DNA of 64,000 nt, taken from positions 1 to 64,000 of the IMG/VR virus record IMGVR_UViG_3300009168_000004. One strand, written 5' to 3'. The position numbers and the translations under genes were made by a program. Source of the stretch: a virus. Each line of letters opens with the position of its first letter. Position 1 is the first letter of the stretch. The notes under the pieces were generated by a model, which saw only the letters and a program-made list of their open reading frames with translations, was not told the DNA's origin and did not search any database. Below are positions 4,647 through 56,125 of the stretch, piece after piece.

Positions 4647-5693
4647 TCAACCGGCTCGCGTGGCTGACCTCCCCTTGAAGCGTTCGACCGAGTAGTCGTG
4701 GACGACGAAGCCGAGGGCGGCGTCGCCCCGCTCGTGCTCGGCGATCCACGTCTTGCCCTTCAGCGTCTCCCGCCAGAAGCCCCGGACCATGTGCCGCTTC
4801 CTGCGGGCCAGGGCCTGCACGCGGTCCAGGATCGTCATGGCCCGGATCGTCGGGACGGTCAGGGTGACGACAGTGTGCGAGATGAACTTCTTGTAGTTCC
4901 CCTTGGCCACGTAGCCCTTCGAGGGGTGGACTTCGCGGAAGGCGACGGGAAGGTCGTTGATCGTCGAGAGGAACGCCCAGAGATAGCGCAGGTCGCCGGC
5001 GAGCTCAGCGATCGGGTTGTGCTTCTGGATCTCGACCATCATCTGCGAGATGGTGGTCTCGATCAGGGGCGACGGCATGATCCCGACGTGGGGGCTCCTG
5101 TAGTGCAGGTCACCCGTGAGCACGCCCTCGACCGACGCCGTCGTCGTGGCCCGGTCGGGCTGCAGGTGCGAGGCGATCGGCATCTCCCGGTCCATGACCC
5201 TCCAGGGGAGGGGGTGGTCCTCCGAGCACCAGGCGTACGCCAGGAAGTGGGGCTGCGCTTGCTCGAGCGTCTCGTCGTGCGCACCGTAGGTGTGGCTGGC
5301 GCACTCGATCGCCGTGAAGGCGTAGTCGATCGTCGGGTGCTGGATGCACAGCCAGCCGAGGCGCGCGGGCATCTCCCCGATGGATGGGGGGTCCAGGAAC
5401 TGGGTGCCGATCTCGAGGGCCCTGCTGTGCCGGACCCTGGCGTTGTACTCGATCCACGTCACCCGGTGGGGCAGGCGAGACAGGAAGCGCATCGCGTTCA
5501 GCGACGCAGCCGTGTCCTCTCCGAGCCGATCCGCACCGCCGATGTCCGCGAGGAACGAACTCATCGAGTCGTCCATCACGAACTTGCGGGCTCCGGCCAG
5601 CGTCTCGGCGAACTTGCGCCCCCCGATCAGGTGCCCGTGCTTGGACAGGCACCGGCCGATGATCGCGTCGGCCAGGGTCGGGGGGTTCTTCAA
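4647..5693 (-). CDS. conserved phage hypothetical protein (C-terminal RHxVRGxWR motif)
   Basis: probable TTG start at 5693 after CAGGAGG; about 348 aa. Confidence 0.7.
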   Translation of the reverse strand: MKNPPTLADAIIGRCLSKHGHLIGGRKFAETLAGARKFVMDDSMSSFLADIGGADRLGEDTAASLNAMRFLSRLPHRVTWIEYNARVRHSRALEIGTQFLDPPSIGEMPARLGWLCIQHPTIDYAFTAIECASHTYGAHDETLEQAQPHFLAYAWCSEDHPLPWRVMDREMPIASHLQPDRATTTASVEGVLTGDLHYRSPHVGIMPSPLIETTISQMMVEIQKHNPIAELAGDLRYLWAFLSTINDLPVAFREVHPSKGYVAKGNYKKFISHTVVTLTVPTIRAMTILDRVQALARRKRHMVRGFWRETLKGKTWIAEHERGDAALGFVVHDYSVERFKGRSATRAG

Positions 5694-6184
5694 GCCACCC
5701 TCCTGTGGCTCTGGGTGCGCGCCCAGCTCAGCAGCCCGTCCGGGCCCGGTTGGACGTACCGGCTGCGCGGAACCTCGCCCCACGTGCGCGGCATGGGCTC
5801 GTAGACCCAAGCGATGTAGTCCTTCGGATCGCCGTCGATCCTGACCCGGCGCTTGACCCTGCGGTAGTGCCCGTGGGCTACGCCCTCGAGCCGGTCCATC
5901 GACTTCAGCATGTCCGCCTCGTCCGGGCCCTTCAGGTCGAAGACCTCGCCCCGGACCTGGGCTCCGCCGGGGTGCCCGTCACAGTTGAAGATGTAGGGGT
6001 AGCCCACGTTCTTCATCCGATACGTCGCCCTGGTCGTCGCCTCGCCCTGGAACGATGCTCGGTCCAAGTGCCAGTGGTTCCCATAACCTCTCATCAAGGT
6101 CCCGTACACAAACACCAGCGTCCGCTGGTCCCGGACCTTCGTCGGGGCGTTGCAGAACAAGATCGTGTCGCGCTTCGTCGTCAT
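5690..6184 (-). CDS. gamma-glutamylcyclotransferase (AIG2/GGACT-like)
   Basis: VFVYGTLMRG.GNH, V.GEV and MDRLEG motifs. Confidence 0.88.
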   Translation of the reverse strand: MTTKRDTILFCNAPTKVRDQRTLVFVYGTLMRGYGNHWHLDRASFQGEATTRATYRMKNVGYPYIFNCDGHPGGAQVRGEVFDLKGPDEADMLKSMDRLEGVAHGHYRRVKRRVRIDGDPKDYIAWVYEPMPRTWGEVPRSRYVQPGPDGLLSWARTQSHRRVA

Positions 6185-6316
6185 TGCCTTCTCCTGTGCC
6201 ATTCAAATTCTCGAACGCCTGCCCGAGCTGGCGGGCCTTCAGCTTGGCGACCACCGCCCTCTCCGCCTCGCGAACGAGGCGGGACATCTCGGTGGCGATG
6301 GTCTCGCTGTCCCACA

Positions 6317-6514
6317 TCAGTCCGCCGAGATCCATCCCAGGTCGACCGGACCGAGGAGGACGCGGATGAAGGTGCCGCCCATGTAGGCTTCGTCGCCAGG
6401 GTGGTGCGGGCGGAACTCGATGTCGACGACCGTCCCGAAGGAGCGGGTGTTGCCGAAGCGGTAGTCGTCGCCGATGCGGAAGTCTGAGTCGTCGCGGTCT
6501 GAGCGGAAGTCCAT
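6317..6514 (-). CDS. hypothetical protein
   Basis: 65-aa ORF with ACAGGAG RBS, after promoter 6544-6576. Confidence 0.55.
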   Translation of the reverse strand: MDFRSDRDDSDFRIGDDYRFGNTRSFGTVVDIEFRPHHPGDEAYMGGTFIRVLLGPVDLGWISAD

Positions 6515-6543
6515 GGTCGTGATCTCCTGTTGCCGTTGGAAGC

Positions 6544-6576
6544 ACTCTACTCATGAAACCATTTGCAGAGTGTCAA
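6544..6576 (-). promoter_or_regulatory. early promoter-like element, class I
   Basis: TTGACA-ctctgcaaatggtttcatgag(21)-TAGAGT. Confidence 0.65.
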
Positions 6577-6589
6577 CGCCGGCGAACTT

Positions 6590-7372
6590 TCAGGACGCCG
6601 CCTCCGCCGCCGGGGGAGGGAGCAGGATCGTGCCCTGCGCAGGCTCGGAGGTGTCGGGCTTGATCTCGTCGTCGGTCATCGAGGGCGACCGGGGCGTGAT
6701 GATCAAGTCCTTCGCCAGGTTCGGCGCACCGCGCTGGCGGTGCCGGTAGGCCAGGTACTCGGTCACGTCCTTGCCCGCCCAGCTCTGCTGCAGGGCGACG
6801 TCCAGGTAGGCCGGGTCGAGCCCACAGTCCACGTAGCCCTGCTCGATCGTCTTGAGGTAGGTCTCCGACGGGGGCTGGATGCCTTCGTCGTTCATCTGGT
6901 AGAACAGGACCCTGTAGACCTTCTTGTTGCCCCGGAGCTTGAAGTAGGACTTCCGGTAGGCCCCGGAGCCGACGCCCTCGTAGCGATCGAGCTTCGCCTC
7001 GTCCCGAGCCGTGATCGACCAGAGCGCACCGGGGCAGCGCGACCCCTCCTTGACCGTCACGTCGGCCACGCCCCGGAAGACCAGGGCGCAGTCGTCGACG
7101 TAGAGGGCGCGCCGGTACTTGGCACCGGGGCATCGCTTCTCCATCTGCGCCGCGTTCAGGTTGGAGCCGTAGGCCCAGTAGAGCTGCCGGACCTCGGGCT
7201 CCGGCCGGGTGCTCCGGACGATGGGCCGGTCCTTCCACACCCGCTCGGGCGTCAGCCGCTCCCTGGTGATGTCGTCGGCCCGGTCCTGCCAGGGCTCGCG
7301 CTTCGGGCCAGTGGTGGTCGGCATGTTGCGCTCGGCCATCCACTCGCTCAGGTTCTTGTATCCTCGTGCCAC
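6590..7372 (-). CDS. gamma-glutamylcyclotransferase (GGCT/AIG2_2-like)
   Basis: LYWAYGSNL...QM..RCP.A, LDRYEG and PS..YL..I..GY motifs. Confidence 0.88.
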   Translation of the reverse strand: MARGYKNLSEWMAERNMPTTTGPKREPWQDRADDITRERLTPERVWKDRPIVRSTRPEPEVRQLYWAYGSNLNAAQMEKRCPGAKYRRALYVDDCALVFRGVADVTVKEGSRCPGALWSITARDEAKLDRYEGVGSGAYRKSYFKLRGNKKVYRVLFYQMNDEGIQPPSETYLKTIEQGYVDCGLDPAYLDVALQQSWAGKDVTEYLAYRHRQRGAPNLAKDLIITPRSPSMTDDEIKPDTSEPAQGTILLPPPAAEAAS

Positions 7373-7373
7373 T

Positions 7374-7607
7374 TCACTTCTCCTGTGCCAGTTCGATCAG
7401 TCCAATGTGGAGCAGATCCTTTACAAAGTCGTCAAACGAAGAGGTTCGAATTTCTCCTCCAGTCTGCATGACGATCCGCTCGGCCGCCTGCTTCATCCAG
7501 GTCGTGTCGTCCCCGACGGGGGAGTGGGAGGTCCGGTGCATGTGGCGGACCAGGGCTTCCGGGGTGGCCGCGTCGACCACCCGGCCGTCTACGATGTACG
7601 TGGTCAT
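7374..7607 (-). CDS. hypothetical protein of the amidoligase cluster
   Basis: 77-aa ORF between the amidoligase and GGCT genes. Confidence 0.65.
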   Translation of the reverse strand: MTTYIVDGRVVDAATPEALVRHMHRTSHSPVGDDTTWMKQAAERIVMQTGGEIRTSSFDDFVKDLLHIGLIELAQEK

Positions 7608-7608
7608 G

Positions 7609-8619
7609 TCAGCGAGCTCCTCGGTTGAAGTGCACCGTCCGGGCGGCGAAGTAGGACTTCTCCGCGTCGTCGGCCTTGATAGCGTCCATCAGCTCATCCA
7701 GGTTGGCAGCCTGCTTCGGGCCCTCCTTCGAGGCTGCCGAAATCTTCAGGCAGAACCTGACCCAGTTGATGACCTTCTCCGCCTCGACCGTGCCCTGGTG
7801 GTGGCGGAACTCGATCGTGCCGTGCTGCCAGAAGGACTGCAGGTTGACCTTCCGATAGCGGTTGCCGTCCCGCATCGCCTGCACACCGTGCCGGCGGAAC
7901 GACTCTGAGCTGCCGTTCGTGTGGTAGGCTGCCGCAGCGACCTGGTCCACAGTCTGGGCGGCCATCAGCATCATCACGTTGAACCGGATCGGCTGGCAGA
8001 ACATGTTGGCCGTCCCCCGTCGGGAGGGGCTCATGAACCGATCGATCGTCGACTCAGCCGAGGAGTAGAGCTGGATGACGTTCTTGAAGAAGTCAGCCGA
8101 CTCGCCGCGGGCACCGATGTGGACGTGCAGACCGCACCGGACCGTGACCTTGCAGCCCATCGCCTTGAGGGCGTTGCAGACCGTGCGGACCTGCTGGAAC
8201 CCAGCCTCGCCCTGGAGGGGAGGGCTGACCGCCTCAGCGCCGCGGTCGTAGCCGACGGACTGGTCGGTCACGATCTTCCAGTGCCGGCGGAGGGAGTGGT
8301 TGTAGCCCTCTTCGTGGCACTCGACGCCAGCCTCGGTCACCTTCCGGGCGCAGGTCGCCAGGGTCATCCCGGCGGGGCGGACGAACTCCAGCTCGACGCC
8401 GAAGGTGAAGGCGGCCAGGTCGTAGCCGACCGGGGCCGTCGGGGACGTCAGGGCTGACGTCTGACCGAGCTGAGCCCGGAGCCAGTTCAGCCGCTCCCGA
8501 CGGTAAGCGATCGTCTCGAGGGGGCCGTTGAGGGTGCGAACGCGGCGGACGCCGCGGGCCTGTGCGAGGGGAACGAGGTCGTTCCATTCCGCTTGAAGCT
8601 GACGAAGAACCGAAACCAT
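7609..8619 (-). CDS. putative amidoligase (COOH-NH2 ligase, Amidoligase_2 family)
   Basis: TFGVELEF, WKIVTD.S, E.VSPPL, CGLHVHIG, RY.KVN and TIEFR.H.GT motifs. Confidence 0.88.
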   Translation of the reverse strand: MVSVLRQLQAEWNDLVPLAQARGVRRVRTLNGPLETIAYRRERLNWLRAQLGQTSALTSPTAPVGYDLAAFTFGVELEFVRPAGMTLATCARKVTEAGVECHEEGYNHSLRRHWKIVTDQSVGYDRGAEAVSPPLQGEAGFQQVRTVCNALKAMGCKVTVRCGLHVHIGARGESADFFKNVIQLYSSAESTIDRFMSPSRRGTANMFCQPIRFNVMMLMAAQTVDQVAAAAYHTNGSSESFRRHGVQAMRDGNRYRKVNLQSFWQHGTIEFRHHQGTVEAEKVINWVRFCLKISAASKEGPKQAANLDELMDAIKADDAEKSYFAARTVHFNRGAR

Positions 8620-8713
8620 GACGTTGTTTTCCTGTGCCGGGAAGATCTACTGGTAGTATCCCATCCAAGCCCTAGTGTAAACCTGGCGGGGGGCGAAGAA
8701 GTTCAGTGGAGGC

Positions 8714-8745
8714 ACCATACAAGAGAAAAGTTTGCAGAGTGTCAA
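8714..8745 (-). promoter_or_regulatory. early promoter-like element, class I
   Basis: TTGACA-ctctgcaaacttttctcttg(20)-TATGGT. Confidence 0.65.
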
Positions 8746-8772
8746 CGGGGGCCGAAGCCCCCGATTTTATTT

Positions 8773-9099
8773 TCAGGCCACCGGGTGGAAGACGGCGCAG
8801 TCAGAGTAGGCGCCCTTGATCTCGGTCCGGTACTGGTGGCCGTCGATCAGGACGACCTCGCCGTTGGTCAGGGCAGGCTCGACGTTCAGGCGGTCGATCT
8901 CGGCGCGGTCTGCATCGCTGTACGAGGACTTGATGCAGCCGGCGATCTGCATCGCCCAGTAGACGCCGTCGCCGACCTTCGCGTAGTCGCGGTAGAGGGC
9001 GGCGCGCATCGGCAGGTAGTCCTTGGCCCGACGGGGGTGGGCGACGTTGAAGGTGTTGACCTGGTCGAAGGAGCCGGTGGAGAGGGTGAGGGTGCGCAT
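8773..9099 (-). CDS. hypothetical early protein
   Basis: MRTLTLS start after ACAGGA RBS, behind repeat copy 1. Confidence 0.7.
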   Translation of the reverse strand: MRTLTLSTGSFDQVNTFNVAHPRRAKDYLPMRAALYRDYAKVGDGVYWAMQIAGCIKSSYSDADRAEIDRLNVEPALTNGEVVLIDGHQYRTEIKGAYSDCAVFHPVA

Positions 9100-9189
9100 C
9101 GGGGTTGTCCTGTGTCTGTGTTTCAGTGTCAGCACCATACTGCAAGAGTGTTTGCAGAGTGTTAACAGCAGAGACTTTGCAGAAAATAA

Positions 9190-9384
9190 TCAGGCCTCGT
9201 CTCCGTTTATTTTTTGCATGGCTGCCACGCCCTCCGCGACGGTCATCGTGCCCGCGCCGACCGCCTCCATGACGGATCGCATGTCCGGGTTCATCCTGGC
9301 GCGGTGGCGGGCCTCTGCCTCCGGGTCGTGGGGTCGCGGGTTCTGCTGGCTCCAGCGTCCCACCGTCTTGTTTGGCTTTGCCAT
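9190..9384 (-). CDS. hypothetical early protein
   Basis: MAKPNK start after AAAGGA, behind repeat copy 2. Confidence 0.65.
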   Translation of the reverse strand: MAKPNKTVGRWSQQNPRPHDPEAEARHRARMNPDMRSVMEAVGAGTMTVAEGVAAMQKINGDEA

Positions 9385-9544
9385 GTCCGTGTTCCTTTGT
9401 TTCAGTGTCAGCACCATACTGCAAGAGTGTTTGCAGAGTGTTAACAGCAGAGACTTTGCAGAAAAAGAAACCGTCGGACCTCTTGGCGGCGCCGCGTGGC
9501 TAGCGGCCTTGCCTAGGATTGCTCCCGGGTCCGACGGCAGGGCT

Positions 9545-9763
9545 TCAGACGCCGCGGGCGATCAGCTCGGCGTCGATCAGCATGGTCGAGAGGTGGTCCT
9601 CCATCTTGTCGACCCACTTGTCCGCGTAGCGGGCGGAGGCCGAGATCTCCAGGTGGTCGATGCAGAAGATGAACTTCTCGCCGGTGGCGAACCAGGCGCT
9701 CGCGTCGGCGATCGTCAGGACTTCCAGCTTCTTGGCGAGGTAGTTGGCGGTCGAGGTGGTCAT
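9545..9763 (-). CDS. hypothetical early protein
   Basis: MTTSTANY start after AAAGGA, behind repeat copy 3. Confidence 0.65.
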   Translation of the reverse strand: MTTSTANYLAKKLEVLTIADASAWFATGEKFIFCIDHLEISASARYADKWVDKMEDHLSTMLIDAELIARGV

Positions 9764-9842
9764 CTGCGTGTTCCTTTGTTTCAGTGTCAGCACCATACTG
9801 CAAGAGTGTTTGCAGAGTGTTAACAGCAGAGACTTTGCAGAG

Positions 9843-9871
9843 AAAAGATTGGGGGCTCCCGAAGGAGCCCC
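9843..9871 (-). terminator. probable intrinsic terminator
   Basis: GGGGCTCC-N-GGAGCCCC hairpin followed by TCTTTT on - strand, just after gene 9880..10248. Confidence 0.55.
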
Positions 9872-9879
9872 CGGCCGGA

Positions 9880-10248
9880 TCACATCGCCCAGTAAGCCTC
9901 TGACGACGGGCTGCAGTAGCCCGGAGTGTTGCTGGCTTCCTGGTAGGCCTGGCCCGACAGGAGGTTGGTGCGGGTGACCGTGCGGACGACCTTCGTCGCA
10001 TAGTGGTCGATCGAGCAGGCGCCGTAGGGGCCAGGGCCGACGCCGGCGGTCCGGTTGTCGCCGTGGGTGCAGCCGTACTTCACGATGTCGGCAGCGTCCT
10101 TAGCGATCGCCCGCTCGTTGAACTTCCGGCAGGTCGCCAGGGCAGCGCCCAGGGTCTTGTACTTCTTCGCTTCGTGGGTCGCCGGGTTGCCGAACTTGGT
10201 GGGGCCGACCTGCATCGTCGAGGAGATGTGGTAGATTACGTAGGTCAT
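9880..10248 (-). CDS. hypothetical early protein
   Basis: 122-aa ORF ending in CSPSSEAYWAM; ACAGGA RBS. Confidence 0.7.
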   Translation of the reverse strand: MTYVIYHISSTMQVGPTKFGNPATHEAKKYKTLGAALATCRKFNERAIAKDAADIVKYGCTHGDNRTAGVGPGPYGACSIDHYATKVVRTVTRTNLLSGQAYQEASNTPGYCSPSSEAYWAM

Positions 10249-10292
10249 CGGGGGTGTCCTGTTTGCCGGGGTTGGTCTGTTTCGGTATGGAC

Positions 10293-10324
10293 ACCATACA
10301 AGAGAACCTTCAACAGTCCATCAA
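10293..10324 (-). promoter_or_regulatory. early promoter-like element, class II
   Basis: TTGATG-gactgttgaaggttctcttg(20)-TATGGT. Confidence 0.6.
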
Positions 10325-10442
10325 CGCGGGAAAAAATCAAGAGGAAAGTTTGGGGGCCGGACGGCGTGGTCAAAAGTCCGTCAACGAGGTCCAGCAAACG
10401 CCATGAGGTGCAAGAGGTGCAAGAGGTGGCGTGAGGTGGCTC

Positions 10443-10778
10443 TCACGCCGCGCGTTCGATCCTGCACCTGCAGTGCTTCAGGACGTGGTGCATCTTGCCT
10501 GCGAACTTGTCGAGCATCTGGCGAACCGCAGTGCTGGACACCCCCAAGCGCCGCGCGACCTCGGCCTGCTTCAGCCCTTCGCACATCAGCAGGAAGGCGT
10601 GCTCTTTGCGGGCCATGTTGTACGCATCGACGCCGAGCGGCTGCTCCTGGTCGAGCACAAACCACGACGACTCGTCGTAGCACTGCCGCGGCTTCTCGCA
10701 CACCTCGCACCTGTTCCACCCGGCGAACAGGCCTCCGGGCCAGCGCTTCTTGGCGCGGCACGCTTCACAGTAGATCAT
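10443..10778 (-). CDS. Zn-finger plus sigma70 region-4/LuxR-like HTH protein
   Basis: CEAC...CEVC; EGLKQAEVARRLGVSSTAVRQ. Confidence 0.7.
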   Translation of the reverse strand: MIYCEACRAKKRWPGGLFAGWNRCEVCEKPRQCYDESSWFVLDQEQPLGVDAYNMARKEHAFLLMCEGLKQAEVARRLGVSSTAVRQMLDKFAGKMHHVLKHCRCRIERAA

Positions 10779-10958
10779 CGGGGGGCGTGAGGTTCAAGAG
10801 GTTCATGAGGTGCAAGAGGTGCTCATGTGTGGCTCTCATCCTGGGGAACAGCCGACCGGGGCTTTTCGAGAGGGGGCTTCGAAGGGGACGGCCCCGGTCG
10901 GTTTTACTCCCAGGCCAGTACTGACACGACTCAGCTGGGCTGGAGCAGCCAGTGTGGA

Positions 10959-11504
10959 TCAGCTCCCGGACGATGTAAACTCCTTCAGAAGCTTCACCTC
11001 GACGCCGGCCTCCCGGAACATGTCGCAGGCCAGCAGGGCCTTGCTCTGCCAGGGCTCGGCCTGCGGGATCTCCTCGCACACGACCCGTCGGACCCCGCAG
11101 GCGATGATGGACTTCGCGCACTCCTCGCAGGGGAAGAGCGTCGCCACCATCGTCGCCCCCTTCGTGTCGAACTTGGCGTTGTCGAGGGCGTTCCGCTCCG
11201 CGTGGATCGTGTAGAGGTACTTGGTCGCCCGGTGGTTCAGCCGGTCCTCCGTGTCCCTGAGCCCTGGCGGGAAGCCGTTGTAGCCGAGAACCAGGTCCCG
11301 ACGGTCGGCCCCGACCAGGACCGCGCCCACCTTGGTGCTCGGGTCCTTGCTGCACTGCTCCGCCCAGAAGTGGGCCAGCGCCATGTAGCGACGATCCCAC
11401 TTGTCCTGGTTCAGACGCGGCAGGCGGTAGTCCTCCTCGGGGCCTCCGAGCCCGCTGAGATCGATCTCATCGCCCATCGTGGTCACCGACGGGCTTCCCG
11501 GCAT
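10959..11504 (-). CDS. dCMP deaminase
   Basis: SKDPSTKVGAV, GYNGFP, HAERNA and PCEEC motifs; true start may be 11477. Confidence 0.92.
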   Translation of the reverse strand: MPGSPSVTTMGDEIDLSGLGGPEEDYRLPRLNQDKWDRRYMALAHFWAEQCSKDPSTKVGAVLVGADRRDLVLGYNGFPPGLRDTEDRLNHRATKYLYTIHAERNALDNAKFDTKGATMVATLFPCEECAKSIIACGVRRVVCEEIPQAEPWQSKALLACDMFREAGVEVKLLKEFTSSGS

Positions 11505-11928
11505 TCATCTCGTCGTACCACCACGCGATGCGGCGGTTCAGGATCGCCCGCTGGTCCGCGTCCGGGGGCTTCCACCCGGCGGGCTTCACCACGTCGAGCG
11601 AGTTCTTCCGCTTGGATCTGTCGTCGTCCCCGCCGGTCGCCCGCTCCTTCGCCATGTTCGCCCTCTGGACGGTGTCCCAGAGCTCGCCCCAGGGCAGCCC
11701 CATCATGTGCCCGGTGCCCAAGGCGACGTAGACGAGGTCGAGCAGCGCGTCCGCCGCCTTCTGAAGGCTGCCCTCCTCGACCGCCAGCTTGTACTCCAGC
11801 AGCTCCTCCATCATGAAGTCGAACCGGAACTTGCTGTCGCCCTCGCTGAGCAGCTTCGGCGGGCCGGCGTCCGACCGATCGAGCCCGAACTTCCTGTGGA
11901 AGGCGCCGACGTCTTCAAACATTCCCAT
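11467..11928 (-). CDS. MazG-like / PRA-PH nucleotide pyrophosphohydrolase
   Basis: EELLEY, ADALLDLVYV, ANMAK and KPAGWKPP motifs. Confidence 0.88.
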   Translation of the reverse strand: MGMFEDVGAFHRKFGLDRSDAGPPKLLSEGDSKFRFDFMMEELLEYKLAVEEGSLQKAADALLDLVYVALGTGHMMGLPWGELWDTVQRANMAKERATGGDDDRSKRKNSLDVVKPAGWKPPDADQRAILNRRIAWWYDEMNAGKPVGDHDGR

Positions 11929-12772
11929 TCTGCTTCTCCTGTGCCAGGTAGGTGTCCATGTCGTTCTTGAAGACGTGGAGCGAGGTCATGTGCATACTGT
12001 AGGTCCAGGGCACGATCTCGTTCCACACCTGCGGGTTCAGCCGGCGGCACTGCTCGATGACCCAGAGCAGGAGCCGGACGGCGAGGTAGCAATCGTCGTT
12101 GTAGTGCCGGATGAGGTCGCAGGACCTGAGCGGATACCAGATCATCGCCCGCTTGTCCCGGACCATGATCTGGTAGCCCAGGGTGCAGACCTTTCGGCCC
12201 CCGTCGGACAGCCCCGTGTCCTCCGGGAAGAACAGCGGGATGTAAGCCTGCCTTGTGTGGGGCTCCCGAGCCAGCAGGTCGATCAAATCCTGGAGGTCCC
12301 CGTAACCATGGGCGATCCCGTACTTGGGCCGGTTGTCCACCGCTGGCCATTTGCGAAGCCCGTACTCGCCGGCCGGCGGCTTGGGCAGGACCCCATCGTC
12401 GGTCCGACGGGCGAACTTCGGCCAGAGCCGTTCCATGTACGTGTGGTTGAAGCGTTCGGTTTTGAACTTCGCTGCCGACAGGCCCCACGGCCACTTCGCC
12501 CACTGGGTTCCAGGGTTCAGGGGCTCGCCCCCGACGCGCTCGAGGAAGTGGTCGTCGGCCCACGGCCGATTGCAGTTCGTGTCCTGTCGCCAGTGCTCCA
12601 AGCCTTCGCCCCCGTGCAGGGGCACGCTCACGTTCACGTCCTGGAGCTCGAACGTGTCCGTGTTGACCGGGACGCCCTGCCACCGCTCAGTCTTGACCGG
12701 CGGGGCCTTTCTCATCTCCGCCTTCAGCTTCTCCCTCAGCTCCGTGAACGTCTCCGCTTGCACCGCCAGCAT
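11915..12772 (-). CDS. thymidylate-synthase homologue, predicted dCMP (hydroxy)methylase type
   Basis: TRQA, catalytic VCTL, RSCDLIRHYNDD (Asp at the ThyA Asn177 position), SLHVF. Confidence 0.85.
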   Translation of the reverse strand: MLAVQAETFTELREKLKAEMRKAPPVKTERWQGVPVNTDTFELQDVNVSVPLHGGEGLEHWRQDTNCNRPWADDHFLERVGGEPLNPGTQWAKWPWGLSAAKFKTERFNHTYMERLWPKFARRTDDGVLPKPPAGEYGLRKWPAVDNRPKYGIAHGYGDLQDLIDLLAREPHTRQAYIPLFFPEDTGLSDGGRKVCTLGYQIMVRDKRAMIWYPLRSCDLIRHYNDDCYLAVRLLLWVIEQCRRLNPQVWNEIVPWTYSMHMTSLHVFKNDMDTYLAQEKQNGNV

Positions 12773-13034
12773 ACTTCTCCGCCTCCATCTTTGCCCTGGC
12801 CTCCGGCGTCATCGCGTGGACCAGGAAGTTGCATCCGTCCTTCTTGATGTCGGTCACCACGCCGCACTTATCACAGGACCCCGTCTCAAAGAAAGTGTTC
12901 GCCTCCGACATGGTCAACCGCTGACCGCAGCCGGCGCAGGAGAACTTCTGGTACACGTCCGCCCCTCGAGCGATCGCATCGTTGGCTGCGATCACGACTT
13001 CGTCGAACGGGTGGTTGAGCTTATTCGCTGACAC
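12687..13034 (-). CDS. zinc-ribbon protein
   Basis: GTG start after GGAG; CAGC...CDKC. Confidence 0.6.
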   Translation of the reverse strand: MSANKLNHPFDEVVIAANDAIARGADVYQKFSCAGCGQRLTMSEANTFFETGSCDKCGVVTDIKKDGCNFLVHAMTPEARAKMEAEKYAGGASGDVHGAEGEAEGGDEKGPAGQD

Positions 13035-14439
13035 TGGCTGGCTCCGTTGATTGGGGAACTCCCCGGGGAATTTTACGGGGAGTTCTGGGACTTCTTGTGC
13101 GAACGCGGGGAGCATCCTCAGTCCTGGCGGCGCGGGGCGGCGGGGCGATGGGCTTCATCCCGTACTTGTCCACCCGGACGGCGCACCGACGGGAGAGCCA
13201 GCAGGCCCCGCAGGCCTTCTTCTGGTCCGTGTAGCCCACGTTCTGACAGTACCAGGTCTTGGCCTCGTCCACGTGCTCGTTGGGCTGATTGACCCGCTCG
13301 CCCGTCGTCTCGAACGGCTCCTTCTTGATGTGCGCCATGATCTGCTTCGAGACGTACGTGCAGAACTGGATGGGCATGGCCTTGCCGGTCTGCCGGACCA
13401 TGTGCTGGTTCAGGTCGTGGCTCCACTCCCCGCGGTCGTTGAGGACGGTTCCGTAGAAGACGAAGTCGTCGGGGAAGCCCTGGATGCGGGCGCGCTCCCG
13501 GACGGTGTAGGGCTCGCCCCGGTGGAAGTGGACCGAGGCGTTGCCGCCGGTCAGGACGTGCGCCGGTCCGTCCCAGTGGCCCTTGAGGAACCCGATCCGC
13601 TTGACCATGGGGTTGTCGCCCCGCGCCGCCCGCTCCTTCTTCGACTCCTCGCTCGGGTGGTACTCCAGGGTGAAGCCGCCCTTCTTGTCGCGGAAGTACT
13701 CCTTCACCTCATCCCATGAGTTCTTCTTCCTGTACCTGCCGAGGTTCAGGGCGCGGAAGCAGTCCAGCGTCCCGTCGGCCGGATCGTGGTTTGGAAAGTT
13801 GCCGCGAGCCCTGGGCTCGGGCAGGTCGCCGATCACGTCCTTGACCTTCAGCGAGTGGACGGCCTCGCCGGGGATGAAGGTCCACTTCTCCTTCCGCAGC
13901 GCGCCCAGCATGAACATCCGGTCTCGCCCCTTCTGAACGTTGCCGTAGCCCCAGTTGCTGACCCACTCCGGGAAGAGGTCGTAGTCCGGCAGCAGCTCGT
14001 GATACTTCGCCATCGGGAACGCCATGAAGGACTTGGGCAGGTCGTCCATCACGAAGTACCGGGGCTTGAACTCCGCCACCAGCTCGCAGAAGAGCGGGAT
14101 GTCTGCGGGGTCGAACATCTTCTCGCGCTGGCCGGGGTTGGCTCCGGACAGGCGGCTGAAGTTGCCGCACTCCGGGTGGCCGAGGGCGATGTCCGCGTTG
14201 CTGAACCTCTGGAACTCCTCCTCGGTCATCGTCGGCCGGTCGTTCGGGAAGAGCGCACCGGGGTAGTTGACCTCGAAGGTGTTCTGCCCGTGGGCGTCCT
14301 TCTCGTGGTAGTACTTCCGCCACTCCACGTTGCCTTCGATCTTGAACCCGGCTGCTCGGGCTCCGATCAGCATCGATCCGATGCCGCAGGTTATGCCGAC
14401 GGCCCTGAGCTGGTCATCGGTCTTCGGTCGTCGAGCCAT
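13021..14439 (-). CDS. deviant DNA cytosine-C5 methyltransferase homologue
   Basis: motif I TCGIGS, IV HPECGNFS, VI DDL (normally ENV), VIII QKGRDR, IX RERARIQGFPDDF, X TGKAMP (normally GNAV/GNSV). Confidence 0.85.
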   Translation of the reverse strand: MARRPKTDDQLRAVGITCGIGSMLIGARAAGFKIEGNVEWRKYYHEKDAHGQNTFEVNYPGALFPNDRPTMTEEEFQRFSNADIALGHPECGNFSRLSGANPGQREKMFDPADIPLFCELVAEFKPRYFVMDDLPKSFMAFPMAKYHELLPDYDLFPEWVSNWGYGNVQKGRDRMFMLGALRKEKWTFIPGEAVHSLKVKDVIGDLPEPRARGNFPNHDPADGTLDCFRALNLGRYRKKNSWDEVKEYFRDKKGGFTLEYHPSEESKKERAARGDNPMVKRIGFLKGHWDGPAHVLTGGNASVHFHRGEPYTVRERARIQGFPDDFVFYGTVLNDRGEWSHDLNQHMVRQTGKAMPIQFCTYVSKQIMAHIKKEPFETTGERVNQPNEHVDEAKTWYCQNVGYTDQKKACGACWLSRRCAVRVDKYGMKPIAPPPRAARTEDAPRVRTRSPRTPRKIPRGVPQSTEPASVSE

Positions 14440-14440
14440 G

Positions 14441-15811
14441 TCAATACTGCTCCCCTGTGAAGATCATGACGAGCAGCTTACGATAGTCCTCGGGGGATCT
14501 GTCCACCTCCTTTGTCCGCAGGGGGATCTTGGGAGCTTCTGCGAGCCCCCTCGGCAGGTCTTCGCTGAACATCGCCCGCAGCAGCCCCTTGTCCCGACGG
14601 TCGATCCAGGGCACGCCCATCGCCCCCTCGACCACGGACCGGGCCAGGAATGGGGACCTCAGCTCGATCGCGTGCCGCATCATCACCCGGTCGAGCCGGG
14701 GCAGGTGCCACATGACCATCTCCTGGAAGATGTCGCTGTACTGAGAGTCGTATCGCATCGCTCGGCCGTAGCCGCCGAAGCACTCGTCGGCCCCGTCCCC
14801 GGTCAGGACCACGGGCTCGCTGATCGCGTTGGCCAGCGCAATCTGGGGGATCAGGGAGCCGAGGTCGACGGGCTCCTGCATGTAGTGCAGGCCCTCCTCC
14901 AGGGTTCCGGCCTCCCAGCTAATCACCTTGGCCTCCGCATCGTTCTCGTTCATCAGGAGCTGCACCCTAGCAAGCTCCTGCGCGTTCGTCAGGTCGGTGG
15001 GGTGCTCGACGGGCTGGGCGTAGTAGGGGACGACCTGGTCGCTGAACCTGCGGGCCAGGGTGTAGACGATCGAGCTGTCGAGCCCGCCCGAGACGAGGCA
15101 GGCCACTGGCACGTCGGCCGACAGGACCCGCCGCTTCGTGGCCTTCACGATCTCCTCCCTGAGGTCGTCGTAGTTGCTGTGCCACTGGGGCTCCAGCTTG
15201 TCGACGACCTGCGCGATGACTCGGCCCGACGGGAAGAGGCGCACGTACTCTCCGGGCAGGACCTTCTTGATCTCGTTGTAGGGCGTCCTCCGCTGGTCCG
15301 GGCAGTAGCCCCACTTGATGCAGGCGGACATGTAGACCTTGTCGAAGGTCACCGGACCGCGGGACTTCAGAGGGTCCAGCTCGGAGCAGGCGGCGACGAT
15401 CTTGTCGGCTCGGTAGTAGAGCGGCTTCTGCGCCAGGTAGTCGACCAGGCAGTGGAGAGACTCCTCGTTGGAGTTCAAGGCGACGATCGACCAGAAGCCG
15501 TCGTACTCGGTGAAGCCCATCGGGCCCTGGTCGATCCACGTGTCCATCGCGATGGTGCTGTCGCAGTCGGCTCCGGGGAAGCGCTCCCGGAAGTCCAGGA
15601 TCTCGCCGACGAACCCGACGGACCACCCCTTCCGGTGCATGGGCTGATCGTTCTCTGGCCCCAGGCCCACGATGGGCAGGCGGACGTGGCCGATCGCCCC
15701 CGTCCTGGTCTGGGCGATCCGGGGCTCACGCGTGCCCCTGTGCTTCATCATCTCCACCGCTGCCGCGATGTCCTCGCCCTTCGCGCCGAGCTCGGCGTAC
15801 ACTCCGCACAT
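14441..15811 (-). CDS. asparagine-synthetase (AsnB)-like Ntn amidotransferase / ATP-PPase
   Basis: N-terminal MCG, HRG, GHVRL, KPLYY, SGGLDSS, TGDGADECFGGY and LDR...ELRSPFL motifs. Confidence 0.92.
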   Translation of the reverse strand: MCGVYAELGAKGEDIAAAVEMMKHRGTREPRIAQTRTGAIGHVRLPIVGLGPENDQPMHRKGWSVGFVGEILDFRERFPGADCDSTIAMDTWIDQGPMGFTEYDGFWSIVALNSNEESLHCLVDYLAQKPLYYRADKIVAACSELDPLKSRGPVTFDKVYMSACIKWGYCPDQRRTPYNEIKKVLPGEYVRLFPSGRVIAQVVDKLEPQWHSNYDDLREEIVKATKRRVLSADVPVACLVSGGLDSSIVYTLARRFSDQVVPYYAQPVEHPTDLTNAQELARVQLLMNENDAEAKVISWEAGTLEEGLHYMQEPVDLGSLIPQIALANAISEPVVLTGDGADECFGGYGRAMRYDSQYSDIFQEMVMWHLPRLDRVMMRHAIELRSPFLARSVVEGAMGVPWIDRRDKGLLRAMFSEDLPRGLAEAPKIPLRTKEVDRSPEDYRKLLVMIFTGEQY

Positions 15812-15949: not shown

Positions 15950-16216
15950 TCAGTCTGTCTTCTTGGCCGGCGGGCTCCGGGGCAGGAGCGGCTTCGCGTC
16001 CGGGTTGAAGAGGTTGCGGCCGGAGCCGAACGTGTAGTCCTCAGCGCTCCGGCTGCGACCTGGCATCCCTGCTGTGCGGCGGACGGGGCGCTGTGGGGGC
16101 GGAAGGTCCGTTATGAGGCGTGTGAGCTCCCTCTTGCTCCTCTGCCGGATCGCGTACAGCGCCAGGACGGCGACGACGAAGACCAGGATTGCGATTGCCC
16201 AAGCTATCGTGTTCAT
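15950..16216 (-). CDS. small membrane-anchored protein
   Basis: N-terminal hydrophobic helix followed by a basic Pro-rich tail. Confidence 0.6.
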   Translation of the reverse strand: MNTIAWAIAILVFVVAVLALYAIRQRSKRELTRLITDLPPPQRPVRRTAGMPGRSRSAEDYTFGSGRNLFNPDAKPLLPRSPPAKKTD

Positions 16217-16485
16217 TTGTCTCTCTGTGCTTCTGGAATGCCGAGGTGTGCGTACCCGGCGATGTCGTCCCAAGTATCCTTCAGGTCCGGGTCGCCCGTG
16301 AGCAGGCGGTGGACTTTGTGCGCGATCATCCGGAGCGAAGCCCTCTGCCCCCGGCTCATCGCCTGCCAGTTCTTGGCCTTCTCCCAGATCTCGATCGTGG
16401 CCTCGCTGATCTCCGCTCCGTCGTCCCAGTTGCCGTGCGTCGACTTCCGCTCTTCTCGAAGTTCCTTCGTCGTGCTCGTAGACAT
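16213..16485 (-). CDS. DUF6378-like protein (all-alpha, often near nucleotide-modification genes)
   Basis: ER..THG, KVHR...GD...DTWDDIAGYA motifs. Confidence 0.75.
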   Translation of the reverse strand: MSTSTTKELREERKSTHGNWDDGAEISEATIEIWEKAKNWQAMSRGQRASLRMIAHKVHRLLTGDPDLKDTWDDIAGYAHLGIPEAQRDK

Positions 16486-16928
16486 CAGTATCGTCCTTGG
16501 TACAGGTCAAGAAGGAGCAGGCCGACCAGCGCCCGCACCGTCGGGTCGTTGTAGAGCAGCGTCCGGCCGGAGGTGTGCGGGATCAGCCGCCAGATCACGC
16601 CGTCCACGAGCTGTGGGTGTATCAGGACTTTTTCAATCTTCCGTGAAAGCCGGTGGTTCAATTCCGCCCTGACCTCATCGCCCAGGACTACGACCGTGGT
16701 CCCGACGGGAGCGTGGAGCCGGAGCTCGAAGGGGTGGTCCAGGATGTTGCGGCGGCGGAACGATCGCTCGTAGTCCACGCTGCTGATGGTCGGGGCCACA
16801 TCCTTGATCAGCCGCCAGAGCCGCCACCCGGCGGACCGGATCGGGGTCGCGCACAAGGCGTCGATCGGGCGATCCGAGTGGGGGTTGGTCAGACCCAGCA
16901 GAAGCGGGGAGGTCTTCGGTTTGGCCAT
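16485..16928 (-). CDS. minimal uracil-DNA-glycosylase-superfamily protein
   Basis: LLG..NP, SAG.RL, VVVLG and IPHTSGR...YND resemble UDG motifs A and B. Confidence 0.55.
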   Translation of the reverse strand: MAKPKTSPLLLGLTNPHSDRPIDALCATPIRSAGWRLWRLIKDVAPTISSVDYERSFRRRNILDHPFELRLHAPVGTTVVVLGDEVRAELNHRLSRKIEKVLIHPQLVDGVIWRLIPHTSGRTLLYNDPTVRALVGLLLLDLYQGRY

Positions 16929-16950
16929 GAGCTGCACCCTGAACCGAACC

Positions 16951-49500: not shown

Positions 49501-49903
49501 GGTAGTGGAAGACCGAGGTCGAAGCCCCCTGCTCCCCGGTGGCGCCAGTCTCACCCGGCGGGCCCTGGTCGGCGGCGTCGCCGAACACGGTCGACTGGGC
49601 TGGCCCCAGGGTCCGGACCCGCAGAGGAGCGACGATCGCCCCGTCGTTGTGCTGGAGGAAGACGAGGACCTGCTCCGACGGGTCGTCGTTGTACACGGTC
49701 ACCAGCTCGACCGTCCGGAGGATGCCCGCCCCAGGCGAGGGCGACGCCACGACGGTGCCCCCGCCCGCGTCCGCGACGATCGTGTTGAGCCTCCCCGGCG
49801 TGATCGTGTCGTCGATGGTGGTCTTGTCGACCCACGACGCGTGGACGCGCGCCGCCCTGTCGGTGACGACCTCCAGCGTGTCGCCCTCCTGGAGTATCAG
49901 CAT
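46574..49903 (-). CDS. collagen-like fibre protein with two DUF4082-like domains and a Gly-rich C-terminal domain
   Basis: two long G-X-Y tracts; G.G.P....G..GDYYIDT....LYGPK twice; WGGGGGG domain. Confidence 0.85.
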
Positions 49904-52524
49904 CAGGTTGCCTCATCTTCGCTGTCGTCTTCGTCCTCAGTGATCCGCTCGAACTCTTTGATGCGGCCCTTCTCGTCGTGCTTCGTGACCGTCGTGATCT
50001 CCCGCCCGCCCCTGTTGACGATGGTCACGGGGACGGTGACGTGGATCGTCTGCTCGTCCTTCGGGGCGCGCTTGCTGAGGGCGGTCGCCGCGTCCTTCTG
50101 GGTCTTGAAGTTCCCGATCTTCCCGTTCTTGTCGTCGGCCCTCCACCTCACCGCCTCGCCCCGTCCCGACGCGACCGCACCCCCTGCGCCGCCGGACCTC
50201 TGCTCGTTCGTGACGACCTGCTTGACGGTGCCCACCTTGGTGTTGCCCTTGTAGGCGTTGTAGGACTTGAGCTTGACCGGCGCCTCCTTGCCCAGGACCT
50301 TGGTCTCGCGGTTGTGGTCGGAGGCCTCGTACATGTCCAGGCCTGCGACCTGGCCGGCGAACTTGCCCTTCTCGGTGGTCTCTCCGACCTTGGGCGCAGC
50401 CGCTGCCGCCCCTCCGCCCCCGCCCGATCCGAACTGCCCGTTCTCTGCTCGCTCCTGGTTCTCGTTGTACTCGTCCAGGGCCACCTCGGGGACGTCGGTC
50501 TCGTTGTTGAAGCCCGTCATCTGGATCTCCTGGAAGACCTCGGGCCCGAGGACGATCTCGCCCCGGTAGGGCTCCATCTCGTCGATCTGCTCAGGCCCGT
50601 TGTAGGTGATCGTGACGTGCGGGTTGTAGTCCTCGTAGTCGTACGAGCAGCCCTGGTGCTTCAAGGAGGAGTGGCGCCAGGACAGGTCGGAGTTGCCGAA
50701 GGCGAGGACGACAGCCTTGCCGAACCTCTCGACGATGCGGGGTCCGCCGGGGACGACGCGGATGTGCCCCTCCAGGTCCTGGCCCCAGGCCTCGCCCATC
50801 TTGATCCAGTCGACCGCCTCCTTCGAGTACATGATCGTGACGTGCATCTCGGCCGGGGTGACCGTGGACTTGAAGCCCTGCGAGGCCGCCCAGTCGATGA
50901 TGGCCTGCGCGTTCAGCACCCTGCGGTAGACGTAGAGGGGCTTCGGGGTCGCGTCGGCGAGGGCGTCCCGGACGGCGGCGTTGCCCGACGGGGTCCGCAT
51001 CCTGTCCCTGCCCTTGATCCTGCGGCGCCGCTGGGCAGCCCGGAAGTCGTTGGCCGCCCTCTTGGCCGGGTCCAGGTTGCTGTTGGCGGGCTCGGGCAGA
51101 TCCGCGTCTGGGTCCTCGGGGTCCACCTCGGCGTTCGGGTCAGCGTTCGGATCGACCACGGGCTCAGGTTCTGCGCGCAGACCCTCCTCGTGGTCTGGGT
51201 CGTCGAACTCCTCGATGATCTGCTCGATGCCTGGGTAGGTTCCGTCCTCGATGAGCTGCGCCTCCCTGGCCTTCTTGAGCACCACCGGGTCCAGGATCGC
51301 GGCATCCACGTCCACCTTGAACGTGTCGGCCTTCTTCTTCTCCAGGTCAGCCTTCTGCTCCGGCGTCATCTGCCAGAGGGAGTTCCACACGTAGAAGATC
51401 TCCTCGGGCTTGGAGCCGAGGGCGGACCGGATCAAGACTTCGTCCAGGCGCCAGAGCACCGGGGAGTCGTCGTTCTTCTGCTTCGAGGAGACCGAGTCGT
51501 AGTAGTTCCTGGTGTCGCTCTCGCCCGTCGCGCTCATGCCCGCGGGGGACTGGCCGAAGAAGCGGGTCGCCGGGATGTCGGCTGCGCCGCAGACCATCAG
51601 GAAGTACATCTGCAGGATCTCGGGCAGGGACGCGAACGAGGCCACCTGCCTCTGCCACTCCTCCTCCTTGTCGATCAGGAGCATGGAGTGCACGCCCTTG
51701 ATGATGTTGGCGAGGCCGAACCGCTCGAGCAGGTTCCGCTCGTAGGTCCTGGATGAGATGTTCAGCGTCAGCCCTGGGATCTTGATGATGTCGATCTTCG
51801 ACTCCGCCACGAGCTGAGCCACCGACGCAGTCACCAGGCCGCAGGACTTGATGGCGTCGGCGACGTTCAGCAGGACGGAGTCGCCCCAGGGCTGCTTGGT
51901 CGTCAGGACGTCCTGTCTCGGCATCCCGACGAAGGGGACGACGCGGCTCGGGTGGAAGCGGACCAGGGTGCCGTTGAACAGGGAGTGGCGCTCGTAGTAG
52001 GAGGGCTCACCGTACCAGGGCGAGGTGATGTCGTCGATCATGGGGCCAGGCGACACGTCCCAGCGGCTCACCGGGTGCAGGAACTCCAGGTCTCCGACCC
52101 TGACCGCCTCGATGTCCACCGGGGTCTCGTTGGATGCGCCCTTGATGCCCATGACGATGCCGGCGCCCCCGTAGAGCCGAGCCTTCTGCTTGGCCACCTT
52201 CATCTTCTGCTGCAGGCCAAGGCGCTGCTCCTCCGCCTCGATCGCCGTGATCTCCTCCGGGTCGCCGGCCTGCCAGGACCGCCACTCCCTGGTGGCGTCC
52301 TCCGCCGGAATGTCGATGAGCTTCCGGGCGATCCAGTCGCCGCGGTAGGCCGCGTCGGCCTGCGCCTGGTCCATGTCCGGCATGACCCAGTTGACGCCGG
52401 TCATCTTGTCCTTGGCCGTGCCGAGGCCCGTCGCCAGGTTCTCCAGGCTGTCCCGCGCAGACTTCTGGCTCGGTGGGGGCTTGGATGCCCGACGGGTTGG
52501 TGCGGAAGCTGCTCTCTTAGCCAT
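49903..52524 (-). CDS. portal protein (DUF1073) fused to an Acb1-like 2H phosphoesterase and further C-terminal modules
   Basis: follows TerL; RLYGG, HPSRV and IP.TR.FGQSP.G.SATGE.D..NYYD portal motifs; HVTIMYS and PHVTITY. Confidence 0.88.
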
Positions 52525-55835: not shown

Positions 55836-56125
55836 CAACAGAAGTCTCGTTTTGTTGCGTACAAGTTTAACGACCAATCCTCATGGTCTTTCTACGTTGA
55901 CAGCATTCTCGTTTTCCTGACAGCAATTGCATCCTTCTGTTCTCATGACCTTTCTACGTTGACAGGAACTTCGTTTTGGAACCAGCAATTGCATCCTTCT
56001 TTTCTCATGACCTTTTGGGGTTAACAGAAATCTCGTTTTCCGCGTTGCAATTGCATGCTTCAGTTCTCATGGTCTTTTGGGGTTGACAGAAATCTCGTTT
56101 TGACCCGTAGAAGTTTAACTGATCC

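Follow-up and report, generated by a model that had tools for sequence, protein, structure and literature searches.

What does a phage make when a Dcm-like homologue of the DNA cytosine-5 methyltransferases (C5-MTases), with a lysine in place of the motif X asparagine, is encoded directly beside a homologue of AsnB? This question is raised by a minus-strand gene run at positions 10959-15811 in the first 64 kb of IMG/VR virus record IMGVR_UViG_3300009168_000004 (the 64,000 nucleotides analyzed here, referred to as the window). The original prediction, made from the window alone, held that the pair installs a 5-carboxymethyl group from carboxy-S-adenosylmethionine (carboxy-SAM, Cx-SAM) and then amidates it. 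The locus belongs to a known kind of system, phage cytosine hypermodification with a C5 transferase that carries a basic motif X residue, yet a literature search found no paper describing this combination of genes. Our analysis shows that the cassette is real and widespread and that its product is not deducible from sequence; it probably yields a modified cytosine other than the predicted carboxy-SAM product. The genes of the run are as follows:

10959-11504, minus strand: dCMP-deaminase-family protein, 181 aa (PF00383, 3.9e-23).
11467-11928, minus strand: all-alpha NTP pyrophosphatase of the MazG/PRA-PH type, 153 aa, a candidate dCTPase (PF01503, 1.8e-13; phrog_671, nucleotide pyrophosphohydrolase).
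11915-12772, minus strand: ThyL, a divergent ThyA-superfamily enzyme, 285 aa (phrog_160, 1e-21).
12687-13115, minus strand: small zinc-ribbon-like open reading frame (ORF) with a CxxC...CxxC pattern, of uncertain cassette membership (weak Pfam match; no PHROG).
13021-14439, minus strand: Dcm-like enzyme of the C5-MTase fold, here called Lys-type, 472 aa (PF00145, 2.8e-17).
14441-15811, minus strand: AsnB-like glutamine amidotransferase/PP-loop synthetase, 456 aa (PF00733, 4.9e-33, plus GATase_6/7).

The sequence features on which the original prediction rested were all verified: the catalytic Cys in HPECGNFS, the GK and DDL replacements, the C-x11-C-x2-C-x5-C cluster (C398, C410, C413 and C419) and the 1-bp gap to the AsnB-like gene. 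The PF00145 match spans residues 15-368 of the 472-aa protein. When aligned to solved C5-MTases with HMMER, GHPECGNFS corresponds to motif IV, FVMDDLP to the ENV motif (motif VI), QKGRDR to motif VIII (pattern Q-x-x-R-x-R), RERARIQGFPDDF to motif IX and QTGKAMP to motif X. The protein thus has motifs I-X in order, a two-domain fold with a target-recognition domain and a catalytic Cys (Cys91), the last in the context HPEC-G rather than PPC-Q, but the motif VI Glu and the motif X Asn are replaced by Asp132 and Lys353. An alignment of 57 homologues, the most distant of them 36% identical, shows no variation at H88, C91, D132, R172, R174 and K353 and very little at the ribose-binding E39-W40; across the family the motif I glycines, the motif II acid, the R-x-R and a Lys or Arg in motif X are all kept. 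QTGKAMP is present in 110 of the 120 closest clusters, which, together with the invariance in the 57 homologues, shows that Lys353 is no chance substitution. The enzyme is natural and conserved, and its motif X lysine coincides in position with CmoX Arg350 and with the Lys374 engineered into M.MpeI, which supports this part of the original prediction. Its gene is translationally coupled to that of the AsnB-type amidotransferase: the AsnB-like TGA stop ends at 14441, a lone base follows at 14440, and the Dcm-like ATG lies at 14439 with GGGGAG upstream of it.

Homologues of the Dcm-like protein are numerous, with 567 at E < 1e-3 in metagenomic 90% clusters and 127 Lys-type clusters at E < 1e-30 in a profile search of 1.8 billion representatives. 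In the best 150 representatives of clusters at 50% identity, motif X has Lys at this position in most cases and Arg in about a dozen, while Q, N and A are rare. Motif VI opens with Asp in the near clade, and Glu appears there solely in distant relatives; the four-Cys cluster is kept in most members and missing from a distant 372-aa clade. A megablast search of the locus against cultured phages gave no match, and tblastn with the Dcm-like and AsnB-like proteins returned relatives of at most 29% identity, indicating that there is no cultured member in the collection searched. Several homologues (P0089, P0242, P0243, P0245, P0248, P0264, P0266, P0287 and P0293) carry inteins (Hint/Intein_splicing with a DUF559/MTES_1575 endonuclease) directly before the catalytic Cys, which would double as the +1 splicing residue; such an insertion is typical of a functionally critical site.

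The AlphaFold2 (AF2) model of the Dcm-like protein (pLDDT 91.5) is that of a two-domain DNA MTase. Its top Foldseek matches are 3g7u, MET1, M.HaeIII and DNMT1, with a probability of 1.00 to 3g7u, 1dct, DNMT1 and HhaI, while CmoX (8yf3) stands at rank 13. Two loci carry tandem Lys-type paralogues (L004:8806-11468 and L006:4422-6829), which diverge most in the target-recognition domain (52% vs 75% and 28% vs 56% identity); this pattern suggests two DNA sequence specificities. In addition, at least eight representative clusters are fused to PF01555 N6/N4 DNA methylase domains, with two more found by precomputed Pfam. The DNA-MTase fold, the divergence of the paralogues and the recurrent PF01555 fusions together favor sequence-specific action on DNA. 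The Asp that replaces the ENV Glu is no pointer to uracil, as Asp reads cytosine in the dCMP-specific ThyA enzymes (Asp177). From the conserved Cys91 we would expect covalent catalysis at C6, from the conserved motifs I and II a bound nucleoside cofactor, and from the Lys/Arg interchange at motif X a pairing with an anionic or polar group beside C5.

A basic residue at this motif X site is known from Synechococcus phage S-B43, where CmoA makes Cx-SAM and CmoX, a C5-MTase homologue with Arg350, makes 5-carboxymethylcytosine (5cxmC) (Yang et al., Nat Commun 2025, PMC12783734; PDB 8YF3). Glycine is then ligated by CmoY, which is homologous to asparagine synthetase but has no glutaminase domain, and a second ligase cluster that does have this domain is predicted to use ammonia (PMC12783734). 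The natural phage carboxymethyltransferase mentioned in the original prediction is a published system, but its amide ligase is not of a different type as stated there, CmoY being another asparagine-synthetase homologue. The same study defines CmoX by SPPC and Arg350, counts 4257 CmoA among the contigs of 5615 CmoX, and reports that E. coli CmoA can supply the phage CmoX in trans, that M.MpeI with an engineered Asn-to-Lys change (N374K) accepts Cx-SAM, and that CmoX accepts Cx-SAM only, not SAM (PMC12783734).

Our locus resembles the CmoA/CmoX/CmoY system in having a basic residue for the motif X Asn and a neighboring ATP-dependent ligase of the asparagine-synthetase family, and may share its logic of putting a handle on cytosine C5 and then forming an amide. 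Unlike CmoX, the Dcm-like protein has Lys (at times Arg in the family) at the Arg350 site, HPEC instead of SPPC, and Asp for the ENV Glu, and its likeness to CmoX is marginal both in sequence (8yf3, E 0.009) and in Foldseek rank. The Lys-type family is, on these alignments, best described as a clade separate from CmoX, in which the basic motif X residue would be convergent or parallel. M.MpeI N374K carries the identical replacement of the motif X Asn by Lys, but as one engineered change in a normal methylase; in the Dcm-like protein the Lys occurs naturally, is invariant and goes together with the motif IV and VI changes and the Cys cluster.

We then asked where Cx-SAM could come from. The contig that begins with the window measures 75,335 bp, and its first 123 bases recur exactly at its end, a terminal self-overlap that makes this a complete, closed phage genome of ~75.2 kb. 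The contig is binned in a 5.77-Mb, 502-contig metagenome-assembled genome (MAG). Using TIGR00740, no CmoA was found in the closed phage genome or the MAG, in 15 related IMG/VR records (9 of them ≥90% complete), or, above the curated cut-off, in any of 201 genomes of the MAG's class. The earlier observation that no CmoA-like synthase is visible in the window therefore holds for the whole phage genome, and looking for cmoA beyond the window, which had been suggested as a check, brought no support for a Cx-SAM supply from either phage or host in the genomes searched. The absence of CmoA is a strong contrast with the CmoX phages. The MAG is perhaps the wrong host, given the GC gap (64.5% in the phage vs 70.6% in the bin) and the absence of a spacer-like match; the phage also has no tRNA genes and no DNA in common with the remainder of the bin.

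The AsnB-like protein begins MCG, with the Cys at position 2, and among solved structures it is closest to E. coli AsnB (1ct9, 3e-11). Cys2, the glutamine-binding R44 and D84, and the PP-loop SGGLDS (S241-G-G-x-D-S) are kept in the family alignment (A3), so that the protein is predicted to be an ATP- and glutamine-dependent amidotransferase. It scores 159.6 bits against TIGR01536, for which the curated cut-off is 267.1, and has Val in place of Asn74; the name asparagine synthetase is not warranted. A search for longer, fused AsnB-like forms found none, which is weak evidence. As for the CmoY type, an AMP-forming synthetase domain does stand beside the C5 transferase (PF00733, SGGLDS, 1-nt gap), and, unlike SpCmoY, the ligase here has an N-terminal Cys glutaminase domain.

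The partnerships of the two genes were examined in their neighborhoods. In a set of 45 Dcm-like loci (43 viral and 2 genome loci), an AsnB-like gene is found in 38 and ThyL in 37. Most loci that lack either are contig-edge or short-fragment cases, and in one of them (L034) ThyL is absent at the locus and located elsewhere in the complete genome. Both genome loci are in alphaproteobacterial MAGs, with one of the two loci truncated, and tell nothing useful about the host. Gene order varies by clade, with ThyL, AsnB-like and Dcm-like genes remaining adjacent. A dCMP deaminase accompanies 34/45 Dcm-like loci, and the pyrophosphatase comes in two types: MazG or, at 12 divergent loci, a dUTPase_2 type whose gene lies between those for the AsnB-like and Dcm-like proteins. 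In every case where the flanks or the complete record can be checked, the Lys-type enzyme is accompanied by ThyL and the AsnB-like protein, over 34-100% identity and through altered gene order.

The converse does not hold. AsnB-like relatives occur in at least 522 stretches of the viral collection, and among 78 loci, 61 have a ThyL-AsnB-deaminase arrangement without a C5-MTase, 13 have a Dcm-like gene and 4 are contig-edge cases; five such ThyL-AsnB records lack PF00145, one of them a 36.5-kb contig that has terminal repeats. For ThyL, IMG/VR has relatives in at least 547 stretches; of the 80 best loci, 67 lack both a Dcm-like and an AsnB-like gene within 8 kb. The neighbors in these ThyL-only loci are the deaminase (61/67), PRA-PH and PolA fused to uracil-DNA glycosylase (UDG). 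The gene sets are thus nested: ThyL contains AsnB-like, which contains Lys-type Dcm-like. As to the co-occurrence of GK-type Dcm with AsnB that had been proposed as a check, the Dcm-like gene does have its AsnB-like companion, but the AsnB-like gene mostly occurs without the Dcm-like one. Because these 61 of 78 loci pair the AsnB-like gene with ThyL and no C5-MTase, amidation of the Dcm-like product cannot be the dedicated task of its enzyme, in contrast to a CmoY-type partnership; the constant partner of the ligase is ThyL, not the transferase. The original interpretation thus has partial support: with this and with no Cx-SAM synthase found, its proposal that the pair installs a 5-carboxymethyl group and then amidates it is not supported. 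In the simplest reading, the core consists of the NTP pyrophosphatase, ThyL, the dCMP deaminase and the AsnB-like enzyme, to which the Lys-type enzyme was added last.

ThyL was therefore examined as the most widespread member. Against the PDB, the ThyL family profile matches the flavin-dependent dCMP hydroxylase AfhB of phage HY126 (9iqu, 5e-16), MilA (2e-12), ThyA (~1e-9) and T4 dCMP hydroxymethylase (6e-8), and a fold search with the AF2 model gives the same neighbors. ThyL does not reach Pfam PF00303, and its matches at 1e-8 do not include the enzymes of XP12 and PaMx74; homologues occur in 113 cultured phage records, including ThyL-only phages such as Gordonia phage GTE2, Serratia phage Serbin, Pseudomonas phage PMBT14 and Brevundimonas phages. 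In ThyA numbering (in brackets), its key residues, all invariant, are the catalytic Cys196 (146), Asp227 (177), Asp219 (169) and Arg193 (143), with motif counts of 67/67 and 36-37/37. Applied to MilA and AfhB as a check, the same register places their known residues in the expected columns. According to Lee et al., N177D marks a dCMP substrate and D169N a 5-hydroxy-dCMP synthase, while at position 143 a bulky hydrophobic residue (Leu143) goes with methyl and Asp/Glu with hydroxymethyl products (PMC13326640). The catalytic Cys and Asp177 point to dCMP as the substrate, and ThyL is accordingly classed by its residues as a putative dCMP-specific ThyA relative. Position 143 is Arg in 104/104 ThyL sequences, which is neither the hydrophobic residue of the methyl type nor the acidic one of the hydroxymethyl type; the product may be 5-methyl, 5-hydroxymethyl or other. 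Two assignments were rejected: a 5-hydroxy-dCMP synthase, considered since AfhB is the best PDB match, by the retained Asp169, and a uracil-specific enzyme, suggested by a local 'YNDD', by the family alignment, which puts the second Asp at position 177.

This neighborhood has relatives among known systems. A D177 thymidylate synthase with a deaminase, PRA-PH and PolA marks contigs with modified cytosine, and the deaminase is thought to yield dTTP from 5mdCTP (bioRxiv 10.1101/2024.12.05.627091). The cassette shares with such XP12-type cytosine replacement the Asp177 ThyA-like enzyme, dCMP_cyt_deam_1 and PRA-PH, with PolA encoded elsewhere in this phage, but differs in that ThyL falls below PF00303 and has an invariant Arg143, and in its extra AsnB-like and Lys-type layers. 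It can also be compared with T4, in which gp56 (dCTPase), gp42 (dCMP hydroxymethylase) and Cd correspond to the pre-replicative pyrophosphatase, the Asp177 ThyA-fold enzyme and the deaminase. Both T4 dCMP hydroxymethylase (dCH) and the CMP hydroxymethylase MilA are matched by ThyL in profile and fold. Unlike in T4 and MilA, position 143 is Arg rather than Asp/Glu, and no glycosyltransferase, dNMP kinase or SAM-related enzyme was recognized among the ~45 phage ORFs scanned. The 5-hydroxy-dCMP synthases (RB69 gp48, DLP3 gp80 and HY126 AfhB, 9IQU; PMC13326640) share Asp177 with ThyL, but ThyL lacks their D169N and, by this sign, is not to be classed as a flavin-dependent hydroxylase. Tet_JBP gave no match in the phage genome, but the control genomes were equally silent.

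Taking together which genes are present, how their sets nest, which residues are conserved, the DNA-MTase fold and the lack of CmoA, we infer a nested pathway of cytosine replacement and decoration, running from ThyL through the AsnB-like enzyme to the Lys-type enzyme on DNA, a reading to which we give a little less than an even chance of being right. In its first, widespread layer, cytosine would be replaced before replication: the all-alpha NTP pyrophosphatase would provide dCMP, and ThyL, with Asp177, the folate-type Asp169 and Arg143, would add a one-carbon-derived group to C5 of dCMP, with the dCMP-deaminase-family enzyme alongside. In the second layer, which a large subset shares, the AsnB-like enzyme would use glutamine (Cys2) and ATP (PP-loop) to add nitrogen to the layer-1 base or a derivative, most likely as a carboxamide. 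In the third, found where layers 1 and 2 occur, the Lys-type enzyme would act sequence-specifically on DNA and flip out the (modified) cytosine; Cys91 would attack C6, the nucleoside-cofactor pocket would be retained, and the Lys/Arg would pair with an anionic or polar group beside C5. Candidate donors for this step are the SAM methyl group, the SAM 3-amino-3-carboxypropyl (acp) group and Cx-SAM of another source. Transfer of acp followed by amidation has a precedent in diphthamide. We propose, only tentatively and knowing that it may well prove wrong, that the product is a nitrogen-bearing 5-substituted cytosine not yet described and that the Lys-type enzyme is a repurposed C5-MTase needing no carboxy-SAM synthase, which either acts on an already 5-substituted DNA cytosine or moves a carboxylate-bearing SAM group (e.g. 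acp, then amidation).

Several points weigh against the nested pathway. Its main weakness is that, if ThyL makes 5-methylcytosine (5mC), a Cys-dependent C5 enzyme would have no obvious substrate in fully 5mC DNA; Cx-SAM use, acp transfer and substitution at a 5-hydroxymethyl carbon would all then be hard to accommodate. AsnB-family enzymes act on carboxylates, and the one-carbon product of a ThyA enzyme has none. Val68 of the AsnB-like protein is near-invariant and stands at E. coli AsnB Asn74, part of the glutaminase oxyanion hole. Five of the seven tested deaminase-linked synthases make 5-methyl-dCMP (bioRxiv 10.1101/2024.12.05.627091). A dNMP kinase was not recognized in the phage. The nesting could partly reflect kinship of phage lineages instead of biochemical dependence, and the host may still supply Cx-SAM.

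Other explanations were weighed against the same evidence. One, which we regard as unlikely, has the Lys-type enzyme act on 5-hydroxymethylcytosine (5hmC) in DNA with no group transfer from SAM: Cys91 would add to C6, water would leave from the 5-CH2OH with the help of Lys353, and a bound nucleophile would join the exocyclic methylene. This would be a natural form of a promiscuous side reaction known for C5-MTases, in which thiols are joined to 5hmC in DNA (PMC7176277, with its reference 26), and it would account for the kept catalytic Cys although C5 is probably already substituted; Asp for Glu would make room for the 5-substituent, and Arg143 of ThyL is polar, unlike the methyl-type Leu143, though hydroxymethyl enzymes have Asp/Glu. 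However, the conserved motif I glycines and motif II ribose-binding acid imply that a nucleoside cofactor is still bound, the Lys/Arg interchange suits charge pairing better than acid catalysis, and the ThyL product is perhaps 5-methyl. It is also improbable, in our estimate, that the Lys-type enzyme is CmoX-like and carboxymethylates unmodified DNA cytosine with Cx-SAM, so that the AsnB-like enzyme would amidate 5cxmC to 5-carbamoylmethylcytosine while the ThyA-like enzyme, deaminase and pyrophosphatase serve ordinary nucleotide metabolism. The basic residue stands exactly at the site of CmoX Arg350 and M.MpeI Lys374, with Lys and Arg swapping across the family; CmoX phages often have an asparagine-synthetase-type ligase, and those of the glutaminase-bearing cluster are the ones predicted to use ammonia; and the 1-nt gap couples the genes here, with CmoA supply in trans known from E. 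coli. Yet the CmoA searches came back empty where 4257 CmoA go with 5615 CmoX, the AsnB-like gene is mostly found with ThyL and without the Dcm-like gene, the SPPC and the ENV Glu are replaced and the similarity to 8yf3 is marginal, and the D177 ThyA-like enzyme with the NTP pyrophosphatase suggests that few unmodified cytosines are left.

There is a similarly small chance that we are dealing with an ordinary orphan 5mC methyltransferase of DNA, in which a motif X Lys is tolerated and which shields residual cytosines from restriction, its adjacency to the AsnB-like gene being a matter of operon packing. The full C5-MTase architecture, the target-recognition domain and the amino-methyltransferase fusions, as in classical phage methylases, are what one would then expect. 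The PC-to-EC, ENV-to-DDL and GN-to-GK changes, however, occur jointly and are conserved over more than 100 clusters, and ThyL and the AsnB-like protein are always present where this can be checked, whatever the identity (34-100%) or the gene order; moreover, the Asn-to-Lys change makes M.MpeI accept Cx-SAM, and CmoX with its Arg refuses SAM. Very improbable is action on free nucleotides or RNA (e.g. tRNA) instead of DNA. The neighbors ThyL, deaminase and pyrophosphatase are indeed mononucleotide enzymes, and the original prediction took the loss of ENV as a hint of a uracil or nucleotide substrate. That view is disfavored, as Asp suits cytosine N3/N4, the two-domain fold matches the DNA-bound M.HaeIII, M.HhaI and DNMT1, the paralogues differ most in the target-recognition domain, the fusions to PF01555 DNA methylase domains recur, and many members have the C-terminal four-Cys module.

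Phage DNA hypermodifications defeat restriction and CRISPR and are a source of tools for epigenome sequencing and DNA labeling. The cassette brings together three families of well-understood chemistry, each with a conserved and unexplained active-site change: Arg143 in the ThyA-like enzyme, Val for Asn74 in the AsnB-like enzyme, and Lys353/Asp132 in the C5-MTase. Nested combinations of the three occur in hundreds of uncultured phages, and no cultured phage with the upper two layers is present in the collection searched. Identifying the product would probably bring to light a cytosine derivative and a type of reaction for the C5-MTase fold that are both new, and would also tell whether carboxy-SAM use can always be read from a basic residue in motif X.

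Around the cassette, the small CxxC ORF, whose start is uncertain, overlaps the final 95 nt of the Dcm-like gene, which encode a disordered tail, and has a homologue in a related locus, L001 (39% over 85 aa). Two further genes lie upstream of the AsnB-like gene:

16213-16485, minus strand: DUF6378 small protein (PF19905, 1.5e-5, below cut-off), present in 15/45 Dcm-like loci.
16485-16937, minus strand: conserved 150-aa protein (phrog_12275), with a possible UDG fold as a lead only.

The 150-aa protein is found upstream of the AsnB-like gene in 24/45 Dcm-like loci. It was considered as a hidden Cx-SAM synthase and dropped, the sole lead being the UDG-like fold: its Atlas structure/feature neighbors include a viral cluster in which 12% of the members have PF03167 (UDG), with a TM of 0.77. 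ThyL-only phages have UDG fused to PolA instead.

Elsewhere, the phage also codes for a portal, a large terminase, tail proteins, a D5-type primase-helicase and a family A DNA polymerase. The portal (49903-52524, minus strand; Phage_portal_3, 2.5e-99) has a C-terminal Acb1 anti-CBASS phosphodiesterase domain (PF23474, 4.3e-36), which would place an anti-defense enzyme inside a virion protein. At 5690-8619 (minus strand), an Amidoligase_2 gene (PF12224, 1.3e-42) adjoins genes for two gamma-glutamyl-cyclotransferase/AIG2-like proteins and a familyless 387-aa protein; this module is known in phages, with its function unexplained, and parts of it recur in L001 and L003. Two possible hints at a host are a weak GcrA-like match at 55158-55877 (minus strand; 5.7e-5, below cut-off) and, in the part of the phage contig beyond the window (L013), a protein ending in a PEP-CTERM motif (L013:6624-7313, minus strand; 9.2e-6). 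Repeats lie at 8702-10325 and 10393-10830. An intergenic element of 45-85 nt occurs in five copies (76-96% identity), each ahead of one of a series of small minus-strand genes; the copies are probably repeated early promoters or leaders. The gene at 10443-10778 is flanked by two short arrays of the 9-nt unit CAAGAGGTG.

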